A DNA stretch of 11,029 nucleotides from Methanobacterium sp. (GTDB lineage Archaea > Methanobacteriota > Methanobacteria > Methanobacteriales > Methanobacteriaceae): the NCBI GenBank assembly GCA_003166335.1, contig PMWA01000034.1:1-11029 (forward strand). Reading direction: 5' to 3'. Under the pieces are notes generated by a model. The model made no database searches. It was not told where the DNA came from and saw nothing but the letters and a program-made list of their open reading frames with translations. Made by a program: the position numbers and the translations under genes. Position 1 is the first letter of the stretch. Each line of letters opens with the position of its first letter. Positions 78 through 9,603 of this stretch are shown here, in pieces.

Positions 78-910
78 TTATAACAAAGAATTCAAATCCT
101 GAACAGGATATAGAAAACCATTTCTAGCAGCTTTTAACATATTATCTTTCTTGATAAAATCGAGGGAGTTTTTAAGAGCACCCAAACAGGTGAATATTAA
201 TAATGTGGGCAAGCTTATTCTGGTTACTCCATATTTTTTTAAATCATTAATAGAAAAATTTTCGATGTTATAATGCAATCCTGCAGCAATACTAATTGGC
301 CCTTTAACTTCTTGAGTTATGGTTTTTACCTCATCCAGAGTTTCGACATAGGTTATAAAAGCAATATCCGCCCCTGTTTCAAGATATTGATTAGCCCGAT
401 CTATTGCCAGTTCTAATCCCGTTGATCTATCCACAGTTGATCTCAAGGCATCAGTACGGGCATTTATGATAAAATCAGGATTATCCATAACATCAGCGGT
501 TTCCCGGGCCACACTGATTTTTTGTTCCATTAAATCACTATCCACCACTGAGACCTTTTTCTTTCCGTTAGGTATCTGATCTTCTAAGTTAACACCAGCA
601 ACTCCAATCTGCATAAATCTCTCTAAAGTATTTATTACTTCTTCGGGACTGCCGTATCCATCTTCAGCATCAGCCATGACCGGTATATTAACTGATCTAC
701 AATTCTGTGTGTCCATTCAATATTTTCATCTAAAGAAACATCAATCTCTTTTTTATATCCTGCTGCAATGGAAAAACTATAACCTGAACATTGAACGGCT
801 TTAAATCCCGTATTTTCAATTAGTTTAGCACTTATGGGATCGTATGCGTCGGGTATGATCAAGGTTTCGTCAGAATTTAAAAGATTTTTAAGTATTCCAC
901 TTTTACTCAT
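78..910 (-). pseudogene. Isocitrate lyase/PEP mutase superfamily protein, split by a single-base frameshift at ~694/695
   Basis: The 5' part (ORF 635..928; likely ATG at 910 with GGAG upstream) has PDAYDPISAKLIE..GF.AVQCSG. The 3' part (ORF 78..716) has VNIPVMADAEDGYG, GVNLEDQ, INARTD and GAD motifs. Adding one base after minus-strand GTA GAT joins them as ...HRIVD-x-VNIPVMADAEDGYG. A sequencing error is also possible. Confidence 0.85.
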
Positions 911-1192: not shown

Positions 1193-1588
1193 ATGTTGAA
1201 AATAGATTTTAACACGGAAAATATGGATAAATGTCTCTGTCCGGATTGTCCTGTACAAATAGGGAGTAACTGTGTAAAGGATGAAATTAGGAAAATTGAA
1301 GAAATCCAATCAGAGGATGTAGATGCTGGAGTTATGATAGAACCAGAAGAAGTGCCGAAACTTTACTGCGCAACAGGCAAAACAAACTGTAAAGATTTAT
1401 ATACCCATGAAGAATGTCAATGCCCTAACTGCGATGTATGGAAGGAGAATGATCTTGAAGTTAGAGGAGCACCCGCTTATTTTTGCATTAATGGACGTGC
1501 TGTGGAATGTTGTAAAATAGTCACTGATGATGAGGAACATAAAGCTAAACTACGAGGTCTAAGGCGGACTTATTACACACCAATCTAG
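1193..1588 (+). CDS. Cys-rich DUF2769-like protein (131 aa, 12 Cys)
   Basis: CxCxxCP...LYCxxGK...C...CxCxxCxV...YFC..G pattern typical of methanogen DUF2769. AGGTGA RBS just upstream of the ATG. Confidence 0.75.
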   Translation: MLKIDFNTENMDKCLCPDCPVQIGSNCVKDEIRKIEEIQSEDVDAGVMIEPEEVPKLYCATGKTNCKDLYTHEECQCPNCDVWKENDLEVRGAPAYFCINGRAVECCKIVTDDEEHKAKLRGLRRTYYTPI

Positions 1589-1650
1589 AAAATTTATTTG
1601 AAAAAAATATATGATAATAGTTATTTTAAATGGAGAATGGGAGAAAAAAA

Positions 1651-2082
1651 ATGATAGCTCAAAAAGTTAAAGAAAAGGTTTTAATTATTTGCTACCACAA
1701 TTCAGCCAGATCCCAAATGGCTGAAGGAATTTTAAAATCATTATATGGTGAATATTATGATGTTTACAGTGCCGGTAGTGATCCTACCATTGTTAATCCC
1801 TATGCAATAAAAGTATTGGCAGAGTTGGATGTTGATATATCAGAAAATCGATCCAAAAGTCTTAAAGAATTTGATGGCTTAGAATTTGATTACGTGGTAA
1901 CAGTATGTGGTGGAGAAGAAGCAGCAGCATGTCCATATTTCCCGGGAGGAAAAAAATATCTCCACCAATCATTTGAAGACCCCGCTTCAGTTGGTGGAAC
2001 TGATCAGGACAAAACTGAAGCATTCAGAAGAAGCAGAGACGAAATTAAAGAATGGATAAAAAACACTTTTAAAGTTGAATGA
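1651..2082 (+). CDS. arsC: Arsenate reductase, LMW protein-tyrosine-phosphatase fold (thioredoxin-coupled type)
   Basis: P-loop CYHNSARSQMAEG, SAG, VVTVCG..ACP (two resolving Cys), FEDP and FRRSRDEI. ATG 1651 follows a GGAGA site; the ORF track starts at 1630. Confidence 0.88.
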   Translation: MIAQKVKEKVLIICYHNSARSQMAEGILKSLYGEYYDVYSAGSDPTIVNPYAIKVLAELDVDISENRSKSLKEFDGLEFDYVVTVCGGEEAAACPYFPGGKKYLHQSFEDPASVGGTDQDKTEAFRRSRDEIKEWIKNTFKVE

Positions 2083-2086
2083 AGTG

Positions 2087-2094
2087 TTTATATA
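2087..2094 (+). promoter_or_regulatory. Candidate archaeal TATA box (TTTATATA) upstream of the glutaredoxin gene
   Basis: Consensus-like TTTATATA directly after the arsC stop, ~120 bp upstream of ATG 2213. The AT-rich background weakens the call. Confidence 0.3.
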
Positions 2095-2212
2095 AATTCA
2101 AATAACCTACCTTAATGGTGACGAGGACCCCGAATTAAACCCTACACTTTTAAAAAAAAATTGAAATGTAATACTAGTTTTAATTTTATCAATATTATTG
2201 GAGGAGTTTTTA

Positions 2213-2494
2213 ATGCCAATGGAACATGTTGATGGGAAAAATGAAGTTAAAGTAGTTCTTTATGCTTTAAGTACTTGTGGATGGTGTAAGAAGACTAGAA
2301 TGCTTCTTGAAGAATTAAATGTTGAATATGATTACATATATGTGGACCTTTTAGAGGGTGACGAACGAAATGAAGTTATAGAACAAGTAAAGAAATGGAA
2401 TTCTCAGCTTTCATTCCCAACGCTAGTGATAAATGATGAAGAAACTATCATTGGATTCGATGAAGAAAGGACCAGGAGTCTGTTAAATGAATAA
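2213..2494 (+). CDS. Glutaredoxin/NrdH-like redoxin (methanoredoxin-like)
   Basis: LYALSTCGWCKKT active site, cis-Pro motif SFPTLVI and IIGFDE. GGAGG RBS at ~2200-2204 precedes ATG 2213. Confidence 0.9.
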   Translation: MPMEHVDGKNEVKVVLYALSTCGWCKKTRMLLEELNVEYDYIYVDLLEGDERNEVIEQVKKWNSQLSFPTLVINDEETIIGFDEERTRSLLNE

Positions 2495-3007
2495 TATTAT
2501 AAATAGTGATCTCATTCCAGTTGATGAGCTAATAATTATTATGTGGAGTTGCAGAAACAGATTGAATCATCTGGTTACCGCTTAAATCCAGATTTTGAAT
2601 TCACCGAATCACTCCTAAAGAGTATAATCATAAATGAGAAACGTTATGGTTATGGGGCTTGCCCATGTAGATTGGCGGTTAATGATAAAAAGGAAGATTT
2701 AGATATCATCTGCCCGTGCGACTACCGAGACCCTGATCTGGATGAATACGACGCTTTTAATTGTGGGTTATACGTTTCAGGTGAAATATTTAAAGGTGAA
2801 ACGAAATTGAAATCTATTCCGGAAAGAAGACCCTCACCAGAGGAACGTGAAATCTTAAGGACTAAATCCATCAGTGAAATCATATCATCTTCCTCGACAC
2901 CTATATGGAGATGTAAAGTTTGCGGATATTTATGCGCCAGGGGAGAACCACCAGAAATTTGCCCAATATGTAAAGTAGAAAGAGAACGATTTGAACTTTT
3001 CAAATAG
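2487..3007 (+). pseudogene. Ferredoxin:thioredoxin reductase catalytic domain fused to a C-terminal rubredoxin-like domain (FDR-type), probably frameshifted near 2530
   Basis: GYRLNPD, YGYGACPCR and IICPCDY FTR motifs. C-terminal WRCKVCGY...PPEICPIC. ATG 2487 overlaps the grx stop and has GGAG at 2475-2478, but is out of frame with the conserved body (ORF 2543..3007, in-frame TGA at 2525). The third motif CxC reads FNC. Family identity is firm; pseudogene status is less so. Confidence 0.7.
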
Positions 3008-3083
3008 AAAACCCAAAAATTGGATAAATTTACTACATCAAAAATTTGTAAAAATCTTAAAAAAAAATAAAGGCTGGAAAGCT

Positions 3084-4136
3084 ATGAGTGAAAAAAACTT
3101 GAAAAATAGGGATTTAAATTATTTTTATAACATAGCTCGGAATTTGCTTGAAGATTTTTATAATTGTGATTGTAAACCTGGCTGGATATGTACCCCTGAG
3201 AAGTTTGGAGCTACCATGGGCCTGGGTGCTGCTGGACAGGGAAAGACGTTTGAGGCTAATTATAATACTCTCCATCAATATCGTTTGAAGATGAATTTAA
3301 TTAAAGCACATCATGAGCCTGAAATGTCGACTTCAATATTTGGAAAAGATTTAACCATTCCTGTAATGGGTGCTAGTGTTTCAGGAGTTAAATTGAGTAT
3401 TAATGATATAATTTCTGAGGATGATTTTTACTGGGGGCTTATGAAGGGAGCTCGAGATTTCGGGTCCATCGGAATGGTGGGTAATACTCCGGCTTGTCCT
3501 GATGATTTAGGGATCACTGTTGCTGGGAGGAATGGTGGATGGGGTATTCCAATTATTAAACCGCATTCACAGGAGGAGCTCATTAAGCTATTCCAATTGG
3601 TTGAAGAATTAGATGTAATTGCAGTGGGAGTTGATCTGGATGGGGTGGGATCTCAATTCTGGAATGCTCATGGAAAACCGCTTTATCGGAAAACTGAACA
3701 CGAACTAAGGGAATTAGTGGATTGTACTGAAAAACCAGTGATCTTCAAGGGTATTATGAGTGTTGAGGACGCGGTTAAGGTAGCAGATTCCGGTGCCAGT
3801 GCCTGTTATGTTTCAAATCATGGCGGTAGACCTATGGATTGTGGTCAAGCCGTAGCGGATGTCCTCCCCGATATTGCAAAGGAGATATCTGGGAAGATCA
3901 TTATTTTAGCGGATGGTGCCGTGAGAACTGGATTTGATGTTTTAACGGTTCTGGCTCTTGGTGCGGATGTGGTTTTGATTGGCCGGCCTCTTGCAATGAT
4001 GTCCGTAGTGGGGGGTGTTGAAGCGGTGAAATTGTATTATGAGTATGTTAAAGATGATCTCCGCACTAGCATGATTATGACGGGATGTGATAATCTCCAA
4101 GATGCAACAATGGAAATACTAGTTAGATCAAGATAA
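3084..4136 (+). CDS. FMN-dependent alpha-hydroxy-acid dehydrogenase/oxidase family protein
   Basis: Catalytic SNHGGR, KPVIFKGI, ADGAVRTGFDV, LALGADVVLIGRP and C-terminal MIMTGC. ATG 3084 is preferred over the TTG at 2991, whose extension is Lys/Asn-rich and overlaps the previous gene. Confidence 0.9.
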   Translation: MSEKNLKNRDLNYFYNIARNLLEDFYNCDCKPGWICTPEKFGATMGLGAAGQGKTFEANYNTLHQYRLKMNLIKAHHEPEMSTSIFGKDLTIPVMGASVSGVKLSINDIISEDDFYWGLMKGARDFGSIGMVGNTPACPDDLGITVAGRNGGWGIPIIKPHSQEELIKLFQLVEELDVIAVGVDLDGVGSQFWNAHGKPLYRKTEHELRELVDCTEKPVIFKGIMSVEDAVKVADSGASACYVSNHGGRPMDCGQAVADVLPDIAKEISGKIIILADGAVRTGFDVLTVLALGADVVLIGRPLAMMSVVGGVEAVKLYYEYVKDDLRTSMIMTGCDNLQDATMEILVRSR

Positions 4137-4149
4137 TTTGGCGCTGATT

Positions 4150-4521
4150 TTATTTGAGTAGGTATAATCCAGTTAAATAAGTTGCAGTAAATATTAATAT
4201 GAAAGGTATCCATGTTCCTATAATACTTTTAAACATTTCAAAACTTTTGTTTATTAAAAGAGCAACCACAATAATATCCATTAAGATAACAAAGACCACA
4301 AATATTATGGCTGTTTCTAATGGCGTTGTAAAATTGAAGAAACTAAAATAAACTAATGATAAACCTATAAATATTATGGGAGCAGCAATAGCATGAATTA
4401 TTAAAGTTCTATCCATAGATGTGATTTTCATCCCAATACCCATTACAGTGAAGCAAAGAGCCCATCCTATAAATGCAAAAATCAAAATAATAATCCCAGC
4501 TAATATACTAAAACTTGTCAT
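4150..4521 (-). CDS. Small hypothetical integral membrane protein (~4 TM)
   Basis: 123-aa ORF with four hydrophobic segments (FIGWALC, IIHAIAAPIIF, FVILMD, GTWIPFILIF) and a purine-rich stretch upstream of the ATG. Confidence 0.75.
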   Translation of the reverse strand: MTSFSILAGIIILIFAFIGWALCFTVMGIGMKITSMDRTLIIHAIAAPIIFIGLSLVYFSFFNFTTPLETAIIFVVFVILMDIIVVALLINKSFEMFKSIIGTWIPFILIFTATYLTGLYLLK

Positions 4522-5207
4522 AATAAAACACTTCTTCCATTTTTTTTACAATATAAAAATTAAATACTTACTAATTATTTATTTATTAAATCTACGTGTC
4601 TTTTTTAACCATTTGAACACATTTGAAATCTCTATGACTCATAATAATAATGAAATGGTTAATGTCTTTCGTTACAAATACTAATCTATTTGAACATTTC
4701 AATGTATAAATTCATTTTTATAAATTATATTTAGATTGTTAGTCAATGATTTGAGAATTATAGGGGGAATATCTGGATTAAGATATTTTGTTTTAAAGAT
4801 CAATTCATTTATAAATAAATATACATTTATACAAATACAAATATATTTATTTAATTACAAAACAGTTTGATTATTCTTGAGTATTTAAATAAGTTAGCAG
4901 TTCATGATGATTTAGATATTTAATCAGTTAAAGAAATAAAAAAAGATTAAGATAATGTTTGGAATAATGTTAAGAATTAAAGATAAATACAAAAATACCG
5001 TAATAATCAATTAAGTACTTCAATATGGAGAATATTTATGGAAATATAATTATTTTTTAAATTATAATTTAATAAAAATAAATATTTCTCCAATGTTCGA
5101 ATTTTGAGGAAAAAATATTAAAAAAAAATAAATATTGAGACGTTAACGTTTATACTCATATTATATATTGTAAACATACATTAATTAAGGAACTGGAGGA
5201 AAAGTTT

Positions 5208-5614: not shown

Positions 5615-7444
5615 TTATATTGATGTACCATAGAAAATCCATATAAAAGCAAATACAAGGGCTAATACAAAGACTAATGGTGCAAAAAATTTACTTACTG
5701 CTACAATAGAGCTTATGGTTGTCACTAATTCAGTGGCATGAGTAGGACCTAAAGTCTTAATGTCATTTATCTCAGCCACTTTAACCCCGGCTTTTACAGG
5801 TTCCAAATCATTAATAGCATTTTTAGTACATTTTATTATCGCGTTAATTATTTCATCCTGCATTTTAACACCCACGGGATTATGACCACCTGATAGGGTG
5901 TTTACATAATGAGTGTCGGTAGTCATCACTTCTACACAATCCAAGCCCTCTGGTTTGACCGATTTGATTATCTTTTCTCTGAAACCAATGATCATATTAT
6001 TAGCATCTAAAAGTATATATGCAGTTTTTTGATAACCACCTACTTCTACAATCATCACCTTAACTCCACTTTGACCTATACCTTGCTCTTTGGACATATC
6101 CTCCAATGGGTCGGAGGAGCATCCTACCCTCATAACCTGTTTATCTTCATTTTTACCTAATTTTTCCACGGCATCTAGCAGCTCGAAAACCTCCTTATTA
6201 CCGGGAAGTATTCTACCACCATCTCCTTTAAAACTATTATGACAGTCAACCATCATCACATTATCTGTACAGGTTGATCCCTTAGCAGCGTTCATCACAG
6301 CTAATCCTACGCCGAAATCTATATCATCGAAACCTTTAGGTGAGAAAGTTGCCAGTAACACTAAATTATTGCCGAAATATTGGGCGCCAATTTTTGCTCC
6401 CTGATGCCTTACTCTCTGGAATTCACTGGCATATTCAGAGTAATCCATATCTTTAAGGGAATCTTTTATAACCTTTTCGATTTTACTTATTTCTCTAGAG
6501 GCCACTGGGTTAAAGTCATGGGTGGAGGGGCCATGTGAAACCATTGTAAAGGTATTAAATCTATTTGCTAATATTGTGGGCATGTTACCACCACCAATAT
6601 CTCCTACAGGACCGGGATGAACGCATGGAGATAAAAATATGGCTTTTAAATTATTTTCTCCTTTGAAACTCAGGATACCTACTATTGTTTTTATTGATTC
6701 GCCCATGTCATCGAAGATGGATTCCATGGCTTGTGAACCTTCACTCATATGGGATAGGAATAAGCTTAAAAGTTCTAATGCGCCCACTCCAAGATTTTTT
6801 CTCATAGGTGATTCTATAACAACTACAAAAGAGAATATGGCTAAAACCAGTATTAATGAAGCTATTATGATTTTGAAGAGAACAGCAATTATACTGAATT
6901 CCCCTAAATTAGTAGTTATACTAGTTAAAAATACAATTACCATAACCATACTTAGTATTAAAGCAGGTTGTGTTGAGGCTACTACAACTGATGATAAGAG
7001 ACGTATATTAGAAGTGCCAAAAATCACTATTGTTCTGAATGCGAATACTATGGCGCAGCCATAAATAATAGCGTCTATGGTGTAGTTGTAGATTGAGAAA
7101 TGGGATACTAAACTGCCTACAACGTAGGTTATTGCCACAATTATCATTGCTATAAGGGCTAAAAACATGGACTGCTTCATTTTCATATGTCTACCATCTA
7201 CTACTTTAACTAAGGTGGGAGTTACAGCACCAGCCATTATGGACATAAGACCGAATATCAAGAAACCTGCAGATCCACCATATACGATGCTTGATAGAAT
7301 GTTTGAACCTGTTTGGGGTTCAATTAAAAAGGAAGTAAGACCAGTGATAAAGCTTAAAAATACTATAATGAAAACCGAAATATGTGTTTCGGGTAAAGTT
7401 ACTAGGTATTTAGTGAGATCCGTAAGATTTTCTGATGTGGACAT
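5615..7444 (-). CDS. DUF2070 family membrane protein (COG3356; predicted membrane-anchored metal-dependent hydrolase)
   Basis: 609 aa with an N-terminal multi-TM region, a soluble domain carrying [25 protein letters not shown] and TTDTH motifs, and a C-terminal TM helix. Confidence 0.85.
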
Positions 7445-9000: not shown

Positions 9001-9267
9001 AATTATAAAAAAATACTCTTTTAGTATTGTAAAAAAAAAACTTTTTATATATAATTTGTAAAAAATAAAGTACTAAAAATTAGGTCTAATTAAAGAATAA
9101 TCTTAAAAAAAATATTATTAAATTTTAATTTTTTATATGAATTAAATTTTTCAGCAATTATACTCATCCATAAAAATTCATAACTTTTAAATAGGTGAAA
9201 TAAATCTTATAAAAAATTAGACAGTGAATTATACTTTAGAATATGAGATGAAACGGTGAAAAATATT

Positions 9268-9603
9268 ATGAAAAACGATAAGAAATCTACAATTAATGAA
9301 GAACTCCTTTCTAGAATGGAACAATTCAAAGAGGCAATGAAGGATCAGGAAAAAAGAATAGAATTAGAGAATAATATATTGGGTTCAGAAGTGCTCATCA
9401 GATTTGAAATATTTCTTCCATCAAAAAGTCCTGTAAAATTTTCAGACGGTGTTTTTCTTTATATGAATGATTCTGGTGATATTGTGGATGCTGAATATTA
9501 TATAAGAGATGCGGATGATATTACGATAGTTGGCTTGGAAGCTGATGATTTCAAAGTTGTTAAAGAACTTTTTAAGGATTCTTTTTCACTAGAAATAGAA
9601 TAA
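9268..9603 (+). CDS. Acidic hypothetical protein
   Basis: Open frame of ~111 aa. GGTGA RBS at 9255-9259 fits ATG 9268. T-rich tract downstream. No recognised motif. Confidence 0.75.
   Translation: MKNDKKSTINEELLSRMEQFKEAMKDQEKRIELENNILGSEVLIRFEIFLPSKSPVKFSDGVFLYMNDSGDIVDAEYYIRDADDITIVGLEADDFKVVKELFKDSFSLEIE

Follow-up and report, generated by a model that had tools for sequence, protein, structure and literature searches.

The stretch analysed here, below called the window, comprises the 11,029 nucleotides of G000:C66:1-11029 and belongs to G000, a Methanobacterium genome of 2.49 Mb in 126 contigs. An open reading frame (ORF) listing and a Pfam scan of its 15 proteins confirmed the order and place of five co-directional genes, all on the plus strand, that had been proposed in a previous sequence-only reading of this DNA (Table 1). 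At the centre of the block, a candidate arsenate reductase gene (arsC) is followed by a small redoxin gene (grx), a reductase gene of the FDR type and an FMN-dependent dehydrogenase gene (FMN_dh). The same arsC-grx-FDR-FMN_dh order was found in two further places, on contig C21 of the congeneric genome G012 (G012:C21) and in the metagenome locus L123, both with an intact FDR; L123 is intact over all four genes. The redoxin-FDR pair is an optional, lineage-restricted add-on to an arsenic (ars) island and is dead in the window copy. It is thus a familiar redox pair in a setting that is new but rare, arose once and is broken here.

Table 1. Genes and other features in the left part of the window (positions in the window)
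Feature	Position	Strand	Basis and remarks
PEP-mutase/isocitrate-lyase-family gene	78..910	-	PF13714 in two frames; divergent from the cluster; frameshift at 695
DUF2769 Cys-rich protein	1193..1588	+	PF10967, 28.2 bits (cut-off 22.8)
Three-cysteine LMW-PTP-fold arsenate reductase candidate (arsC), intact	1651..2082	+	PF01451
arsC-grx spacer, 130 nt	2083..2212	+	TATA-like TTTATATA at 2087 (pattern scan)
Methanoredoxin-like CGWC redoxin (grx), intact	2213..2494	+	PF00462
FDR pseudogene: FTR catalytic domain and C-terminal rubredoxin	2487..3007	+	PF02943 and PF21349
FMN-dependent alpha-hydroxy-acid dehydrogenase family gene (FMN_dh), intact	3084..4136	+	PF01070
Small membrane protein, 123 aa, convergent	4150..4521	-	no Pfam family

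The redoxin has a Grx fold and an STCxWC motif, and its gene lies just upstream of that of FDR. It matches the Methanosarcina structures 3NZN (E 1e-29) and 5CAX (E 5e-28), and the FTR-rubredoxin fusion matches 4TPU over its full length (E 1.5e-58). We take 5CAX to be methanoredoxin and 4TPU to be FDR, both from M. acetivorans; with these as the closest structures, the likeness to methanoredoxin and FDR that the sequence-only reading had noticed is well founded. CGWC is the commonest redoxin motif (52 of 101 matches). An intact housekeeping pair is located on contig C88 of the same genome in the order thiC-grx-FDR-HTH-DNA ligase, and its redoxin is 87% identical to that of the window. In most of the Methanobacteriales loci inspected (L003-L030), thiC and DNA ligase flank the housekeeping pair, which possibly activates or protects ThiC.

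The CPC, CPC and C-(Y/F/H)-C motifs of FDR serve the [4Fe-4S] cluster and the active disulfide. Intact FDR orthologs carry CPC, CPC and CYC motifs and the rubredoxin CxxC pairs, and the frame is intact in G012:C21, L123 and G000:C88. The window FDR gene is a pseudogene. Compared with three intact orthologs, it has lost 7 nucleotides near 2527, and the frame beginning with the ATG at 2487 is closed after 32 codons; it is open again from a GTG at 2543, for which no ribosome-binding site is evident. Its third cysteine motif (2756-2764) reads FNC where G012:C21 and L123 have CYC. Across 110 FDR loci, this motif is CYC in 97 and CFC in 11, one match is spurious, and FNC occurs in the window only. 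By the plant-FTR model, the cysteine lost is presumably a [4Fe-4S] ligand. The damage suspected earlier is hence real and can be assigned to these two lesions. Both were present in contigs of four DNA runs that match 2317-2935 or 2317-3161 without gaps and differ there in 1-3 letters; a contig in each of the four runs bridged the arsC-grx spacer. These runs, from four studies, were picked from 14 strong DNA holders, and none is flagged as a possible source of the window. An assembly error as the origin of the gene order or of the FDR lesions is rejected by these contigs. Contamination of the bin is an unlikely explanation for the paralogs in G000, given its 99.43% completeness and 0.15% contamination. 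The runs listed, 23 in number, are all metagenomes from peat.

All genes of the block have further paralogs in G000. In related genomes, arsR-arsM-acr3 is accompanied by DUF2769, the PEP-mutase-like gene, arsC and FMN_dh. Islands in G017, G005, G002 and G012:C38 contain, with variations, (msrB) DUF2769 acr3 arsM arsR, DUF166 DGC PEP-mutase-like and arsC FMN_dh. In G005, G002 and G012:C38, msrB borders the island and DUF2769 directly follows acr3; the PEP-mutase-like gene adjoins arsC in G017, G002, G012 (two loci), G014, L123 and G000:C79. Judged by this gene content, the window block is a piece of a Methanobacteriaceae ars island. As the sequence-only reading had remarked, the window holds no arsR, acr3 or arsB, none of these families being found in the 15 scanned proteins; arsR and acr3 are missing because the contig begins just past the PEP-mutase-like gene. 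Among 28 arsC loci of close relatives in the genome collection, arsR is present in 18 and acr3 in 15, which provides the arsenic context for the earlier assignment of the gene to arsenate reduction, and grx-FDR is present in one (G012:C21).

Further parts of the island are scattered over G000. Contig C2 carries a DUF2769 paralog (5902-6297, 73% identical) divergent from arsR-arsM-acr3, as well as a paralog of the 4150-4521 membrane-protein gene just after acr3 (78.8% DNA identity to C2:9174-9570). Two more arsR-arsM-acr3 clusters, on C43 and C123, are cut by contig ends inside arsR, and an FMN_dh paralog lies on C103. A second intact arsC on C79 is found beside a PEP-mutase-like gene, DGC, DUF2115 and DUF166, and a broken arsC at C91:3134-3420. 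Downstream of the C79 arsC, about 45 nt resembling the arsC-grx spacer of G012:C21 and L123 are followed by sequence like window 4514-4617, so that the locus reads as a deletion derivative. With three arsR-arsM-acr3 clusters, two intact arsC genes and a broken one, the ars set of this genome is unusually repeated.

The three ars-linked copies group together (support 100/98) in a phylogeny of 33 grx+FDR pairs, away from the 30 others. Their clade falls inside the genus and excludes the housekeeping copies from the same genomes. It implies one duplication, and the ars-linked pair is therefore a duplicate of the housekeeping pair with a single origin. Pairwise ratios of non-synonymous to synonymous substitution rates (dN/dS) of the ars-linked FDRs were 0.14-0.17 at synonymous divergences (dS) of 0.26-0.61, and those of housekeeping copies 0.13-0.14. 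Purifying selection of this strength indicates that the duplicate FDR was useful for a time. For the window redoxin, dN/dS was 0.15 and 0.24 in comparison with the two other ars-linked redoxins. The linked pair singled out by the sequence-only reading is accordingly a separate paralog lineage under purifying selection.

The surrounding genes have a different history. A clade of the three loci was rejected in the arsC tree (19 rows, approximately unbiased (AU) test, p 0.002) and in the FMN_dh tree (12 rows, AU p 6e-40). The window arsC and FMN_dh are closest to those of G017 (90-92% DNA identity), which is devoid of the pair. From FMN_dh on, G012:C21 and G012:C38 are 99.1% identical over 6.8 kb, against 84% over arsC and upstream, a step that marks either an edge of recombination or the presence of two strains in the bin. 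The pair was gained once and then either lost repeatedly (three or more times) or moved by recombination; alike ribosome-binding regions in four arsC-FMN_dh loci lean weakly towards recombination. The window arsC-grx spacer is unlike in sequence to that of G012:C21 and L123. A joint of 2083 to 3103 in runs X5, X12, X14 and X15 was considered as a deletion allele and rejected, since these contigs are only about 91% alike and represent a related island copy. FMN_dh follows arsC, or arsC-grx-FDR, in seven island loci; these FMN_dh genes form one clade (100/99) and are under purifying selection (dN/dS 0.08-0.15). The arsC-FMN_dh link is steadier than the arsC-grx-FDR link (L062, L063, L064 and L065 among the loci).

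The neighbourhood search suggested in the sequence-only reading recovered the same order in G012:C21 and L123 and no general association. We took a census of 221 Methanobacteriales genomes at least 80% complete, leaving out second halves of split arsC matches. FTR was found in 122, arsC in 96 and both in 87 genomes; the two genes lie on different contigs in 54 of the 87, on one contig in 33 and within 10 kb in 2, the next nearest distance being 81 kb. Within the genus, arsC-grx-FDR is linked in 2 of 19 genomes (G000 and G012). Among the best 80 of 473 metagenome FDR loci, of which 55 have at least 1 kb of upstream sequence, a redoxin is present in 76 and arsC in one (L123); Halobacteriota and Desulfobacterota were covered as far as they are present among the metagenome loci. 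A general arsC-FDR linkage is rejected by these counts (2/87 genomes, 1/80 metagenome FDR loci). FTR/FDR is single-copy in 119 of the 122 genomes having it; the extra copies are ars-linked in two of the three others, and the third (G196) has its housekeeping locus repeated at 99.4% identity. FTR was found in 87 of the 96 arsC genomes versus 35 of 125 others, a co-occurrence confounded by kinship and not used as a test. No FDR match was obtained in 72,556 plasmid records. 'arsM' matches beside the metagenome FDR loci L196 and L202 turned out by sequence to be unrelated methyltransferases.

The ArsC-like protein has the CX5R P-loop with an Asn (CYHNSAR, residues 14-20, C14-x5-R20), and its C86, C94 and D110-P111 align with their counterparts in 1JL3 (E 9e-24). 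The arsenate reductases of B. subtilis and S. aureus are its closest solved relatives. With these (1JL3, 2IPA and 1LJL from B. subtilis and S. aureus pI258) and with the glutaredoxin-fed Synechocystis enzyme (2L17) it shares the fold of low-molecular-weight protein tyrosine phosphatases (LMW-PTP), the CX5R loop, two further cysteines and the Asp-Pro. In the text available to us, three-cysteine ArsC is described as working through a C10/C82/C89 cascade that needs a protein disulfide reductant, and a complex of thioredoxin (Trx) with ArsC is reported (PMC6193951). For ArsC and redoxin of the intact G012:C21 locus, complex prediction gave a score of 0.54 (best control 0.00), with at least 84% contact agreement between runs and a partner pLDDT of at least 86. 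The mark applied was reached by 51 of 78 solved pairs and by 2 of 108 mismatched pairs; scores of 0.60 or lower comprise only 5 of the 78 solved pairs and all 4 passing mismatches. As a Trx-ArsC complex is already solved (2IPA), the prediction may reflect memory and cannot discriminate between family members. It lends weak support to an ArsC-redoxin complex in G012:C21.

RNA-library contigs that differ from the window at 0-2 positions are found at 1174-1740, 2317-2731 and 2724-3161 (X15), 1161-1780 (X16) and 1545-1935 (X17), and they span the junctions DUF2769-arsC, grx-FDR and FDR-FMN_dh. X15 and X16 stem from a study that is possibly the source of the window DNA, and a common transcript cannot be demonstrated with contigs. 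The interval 2119-2213 was spanned by none of the RNA-library contigs listed, and cover was near zero over the divergent spacer 943-1099 in 4/4 runs; such gaps in cover prove nothing.

As the likeliest reading, we tentatively propose that the duplicate redoxin-FDR pair behind arsC fed ferredoxin-derived electrons to the thiol enzymes of the island, ArsC first, a proposal that we find nearly as credible as its negation. The window would hold a decaying copy of an arsenic-resistance island, in which a duplicate of the housekeeping pair had been put behind arsC. Electrons would pass from ferredoxin to the [4Fe-4S] cluster and disulfide of FDR and on to the CGWC redoxin, as FDR is known to reduce methanoredoxin in Methanosarcina. 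The redoxin would then reduce the C86-C94 disulfide of ArsC, and arsenate would be converted to arsenite for export by Acr3 or methylation by ArsM, both encoded elsewhere. Direct coupling from ferredoxin via FDR and redoxin to ArsC is plausible. The NADPH-independent chain of this kind envisaged in the sequence-only reading gains from the island context and from the same order with an intact FDR in two loci; it loses by being neither general nor of more than one origin. The broken FDR prevents it from working in cis in this copy. Nor is a route independent of NADPH the only option, as G000 encodes a TrxR-like flavoprotein of the NTR type on C110 (336.6 bits, cut-off 343.45), with CATC and VHRRNELRA motifs, and a CPYC thioredoxin on C113. 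The VHRRNELRA motif presumably marks NADPH binding. In G000, ArsC might be recycled in trans by either redoxin copy, with the intact C88 FDR or coenzyme M, or by the NTR-like/thioredoxin pair. The pair behind arsC is optional because housekeeping redoxin and FDR as well as NTR and Trx exist in trans. A bolder version appears unlikely to us, namely that an ars-island haplotype of wetland and soil Methanobacteriaceae encodes its own ferredoxin-FDR-methanoredoxin donor of a three-cysteine ArsC, as the first NAD(P)H- and glutathione-independent route of arsenate detoxification, with the unlinked housekeeping pair doing likewise in the many methanogens that possess arsC and FTR (87 of the 96 arsC genomes).

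Several results weigh against a dedicated supply of ArsC. The protein differs from the Trx-coupled B. subtilis and S. aureus enzymes by its C86-x7-C94 spacing and by its scores, which lie below the curated equivalog cut-off of TIGR02691 (111.4 bits, cut-off 174.3) and below that of TIGR02689, making arsenate reduction a candidate activity. The pair has one origin, and no independent recruitment to arsC was seen in the 87 Methanobacteriales genomes or the 80 metagenome FDR loci. For the phylum of G231, with 39 matching genomes, 30 FDR loci likewise had no arsC within 1.5 kb, and for that of G040 the same held for 4 FDR loci. Linkage in independent lineages, by which we would recognise a dedicated ars-FDR operon, was not observed, the three loci going back to one origin. 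No ArsC-redoxin or ArsC-FTR fusion occurred among 120 listed of 298 longer ArsC homologs, and no fusion among 9 longer FDR homologs or 150 listed of 931 FDR representatives, both of which are weak evidence. In four sister islands (G017, G005, G002 and G012:C38) arsC stands directly before FMN_dh without grx-FDR, on G000:C79 both grx-FDR and FMN_dh are absent after arsC, and G012:C21 has frameshifts in its PEP-mutase-like and FMN_dh genes. Between the redoxins of G012:C21 and L123, dN/dS was 1.32 (20 non-synonymous and 4 synonymous changes). The genomic case is thin, as the pair arose once, was found in three loci, is often absent and is dead in the window. TrxR-like flavoprotein genes occurred in 5/5 further genomes tested, including all four genus relatives tested, and the TATA-like element in the arsC-grx spacer may give grx-FDR a promoter of its own.

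The last two points, together with the NTR-like and thioredoxin genes of G000, the msrB gene at the border of three islands and the separation of the genes in 85 of the 87 genomes having both, would suit a role of the pair in general thiol maintenance. It would then be kept for dosage under disulfide stress from arsenic or oxygen, or for ArsM or MsrB, with the NADPH-type reductase and CPYC thioredoxin doing most of the ArsC recycling, and the place of the pair behind arsC would reflect shared regulation rather than a partnership with ArsC. We regard this as a serious candidate, though on balance a doubtful one: in all three loci the pair stands directly behind arsC and not beside arsM or msrB, and the ArsC-redoxin complex score, weak and blind to differences between family members as it is, also speaks against it. 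The single origin and the mosaic islands (G012:C21 and C38), the rejection of a three-locus clade by the arsC and FMN_dh trees, the loss of the pair in the window and its absence in five related loci, and the high redoxin dN/dS in one comparison are what one would expect of a mere passenger, brought in by one chance rearrangement, carried by recombination among island copies, without a role in arsenic handling and now being purged. This is rather improbable, as an FDR made redundant by an intact housekeeping pair kept its low dN/dS over dS values of up to 0.61, and apart from these, hardly any genome of the order has a second FDR copy. The steady position of FMN_dh after arsC in seven island loci could also point to a substrate-driven donor chain, in which electrons released by hydroxy-acid oxidation enter the rubredoxin-bearing FDR and from there reach the redoxin; a longer FMN_dh paralog, a 423-aa frame in G007, carries at its N-terminus a CxxC...CPxC rubredoxin-like part, which the island form does not have. 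We consider such a chain most improbable. The pair is missing from four of the seven FMN_dh loci, short paralogs outside the islands are also devoid of the N-terminal part, and we know of no electron transfer from FMN_dh to FTR.

As in Methanosarcina, a redoxin adjoins an FTR-rubredoxin fusion in the window; in contrast to that methanoredoxin and FDR, the window pair is a second copy within an ars island, has CGWC instead of CVWC and includes a broken FDR. A related arrangement comes from M. barkeri, for which Wei et al. are said to have demonstrated an FDR-NrdH-NrdD link biochemically in 2015. There, too, ferredoxin reportedly serves FDR, a small redoxin and a neighbouring thiol-dependent enzyme in turn; the target is a class III ribonucleotide reductase and the redoxin is of the NrdH type, whereas the present case consists of adjacency in three loci only. 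Likewise, arsT/arsX-type ars clusters are said to contain disulfide-reducing genes of their own, as does the L209 island with a PF13192 redoxin beside ArsP. These reportedly involve an NADPH-type TrxR/Trx or, in L209, a lone small redoxin, unlike the FTR-type [4Fe-4S] reductase of the window. Such a redoxin beside an ArsP permease is present in other Methanobacteriaceae ars islands (L209:7180-8547, with like ORFs at L211:5542-6835), which suggests that a thiol donor is recurring island cargo.

An FTR-type [4Fe-4S] reductase within an ars cluster was not found in the literature searched, and neither was a paper that connects ArsC with FDR or methanoredoxin, although subscription papers could affect this judgement of novelty. 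According to the accessible part of one article, methanoredoxin uses coenzyme M and FDR, and arsenic is mentioned there only for ArsB (PMC6491703). A review describes use of coenzyme M by methanoredoxin, and NTR and FDR in M. acetivorans, with no occurrence of 'arsen' in its accessible text (PMC7278568). No ArsC target of Methanosarcina methanoredoxin or FDR is reported in the accessible text of the literature consulted. Glutaredoxin GrxA was the best donor for the Synechocystis arsenate reductase, as given in the available text (PMC3816324), and Fusibacter arsC-1 adjoins ferredoxin and thioredoxin genes, with no FTR named in the part of the preprint available (bioRxiv 10.1101/2022.06.08.495031). 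Methanogens are relevant to the speciation of arsenic in peat and paddy soils, and the papers searched gave no answer as to the reductant that recharges ArsC and ArsM in them. If the proposed coupling is true, arsenate reductase would join the known targets of FDR-fed redoxins.

Some neighbouring genes deserve mention. A Cys-rich DUF2769 subtype accompanies arsR-arsM-acr3 (window, G000:C2, L063, L064 and L065) and is a candidate arsenite- or metal-binding protein. The PEP-mutase/isocitrate-lyase-family gene recurs in Methanobacteriaceae ars islands (also G018 and L210), often broken, and to our knowledge no arsenic-handling role of this family has been described. Its frameshift at 695 in the window is polymorphic, one inserted T repairing the frame in 3/4 DNA runs. 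Regular uncharacterised companions of arsC in the 28 loci (L203-L228; also L062) are DGC (12), a 4Fe-4S protein (10), DUF166 (10) and DUF2115 (7). Labels from reading of the sequence alone were given to an mcrB-like ORF on G000:C79 and to DsrE/TusBCD-like ORFs beside acr3 in other ars islands. In the window itself, an acidic 115-aa ORF without a Pfam or NCBIfam match (9256-9603, plus strand) stands isolated between long AT-rich spacers. Downstream of the G012 and G002 islands lies a fragmented ORF (L061:2602-3404, L065:10527-11278 and L064:10696-11265) that presumably belongs to the aminoglycoside 3-N-acetyltransferase family.

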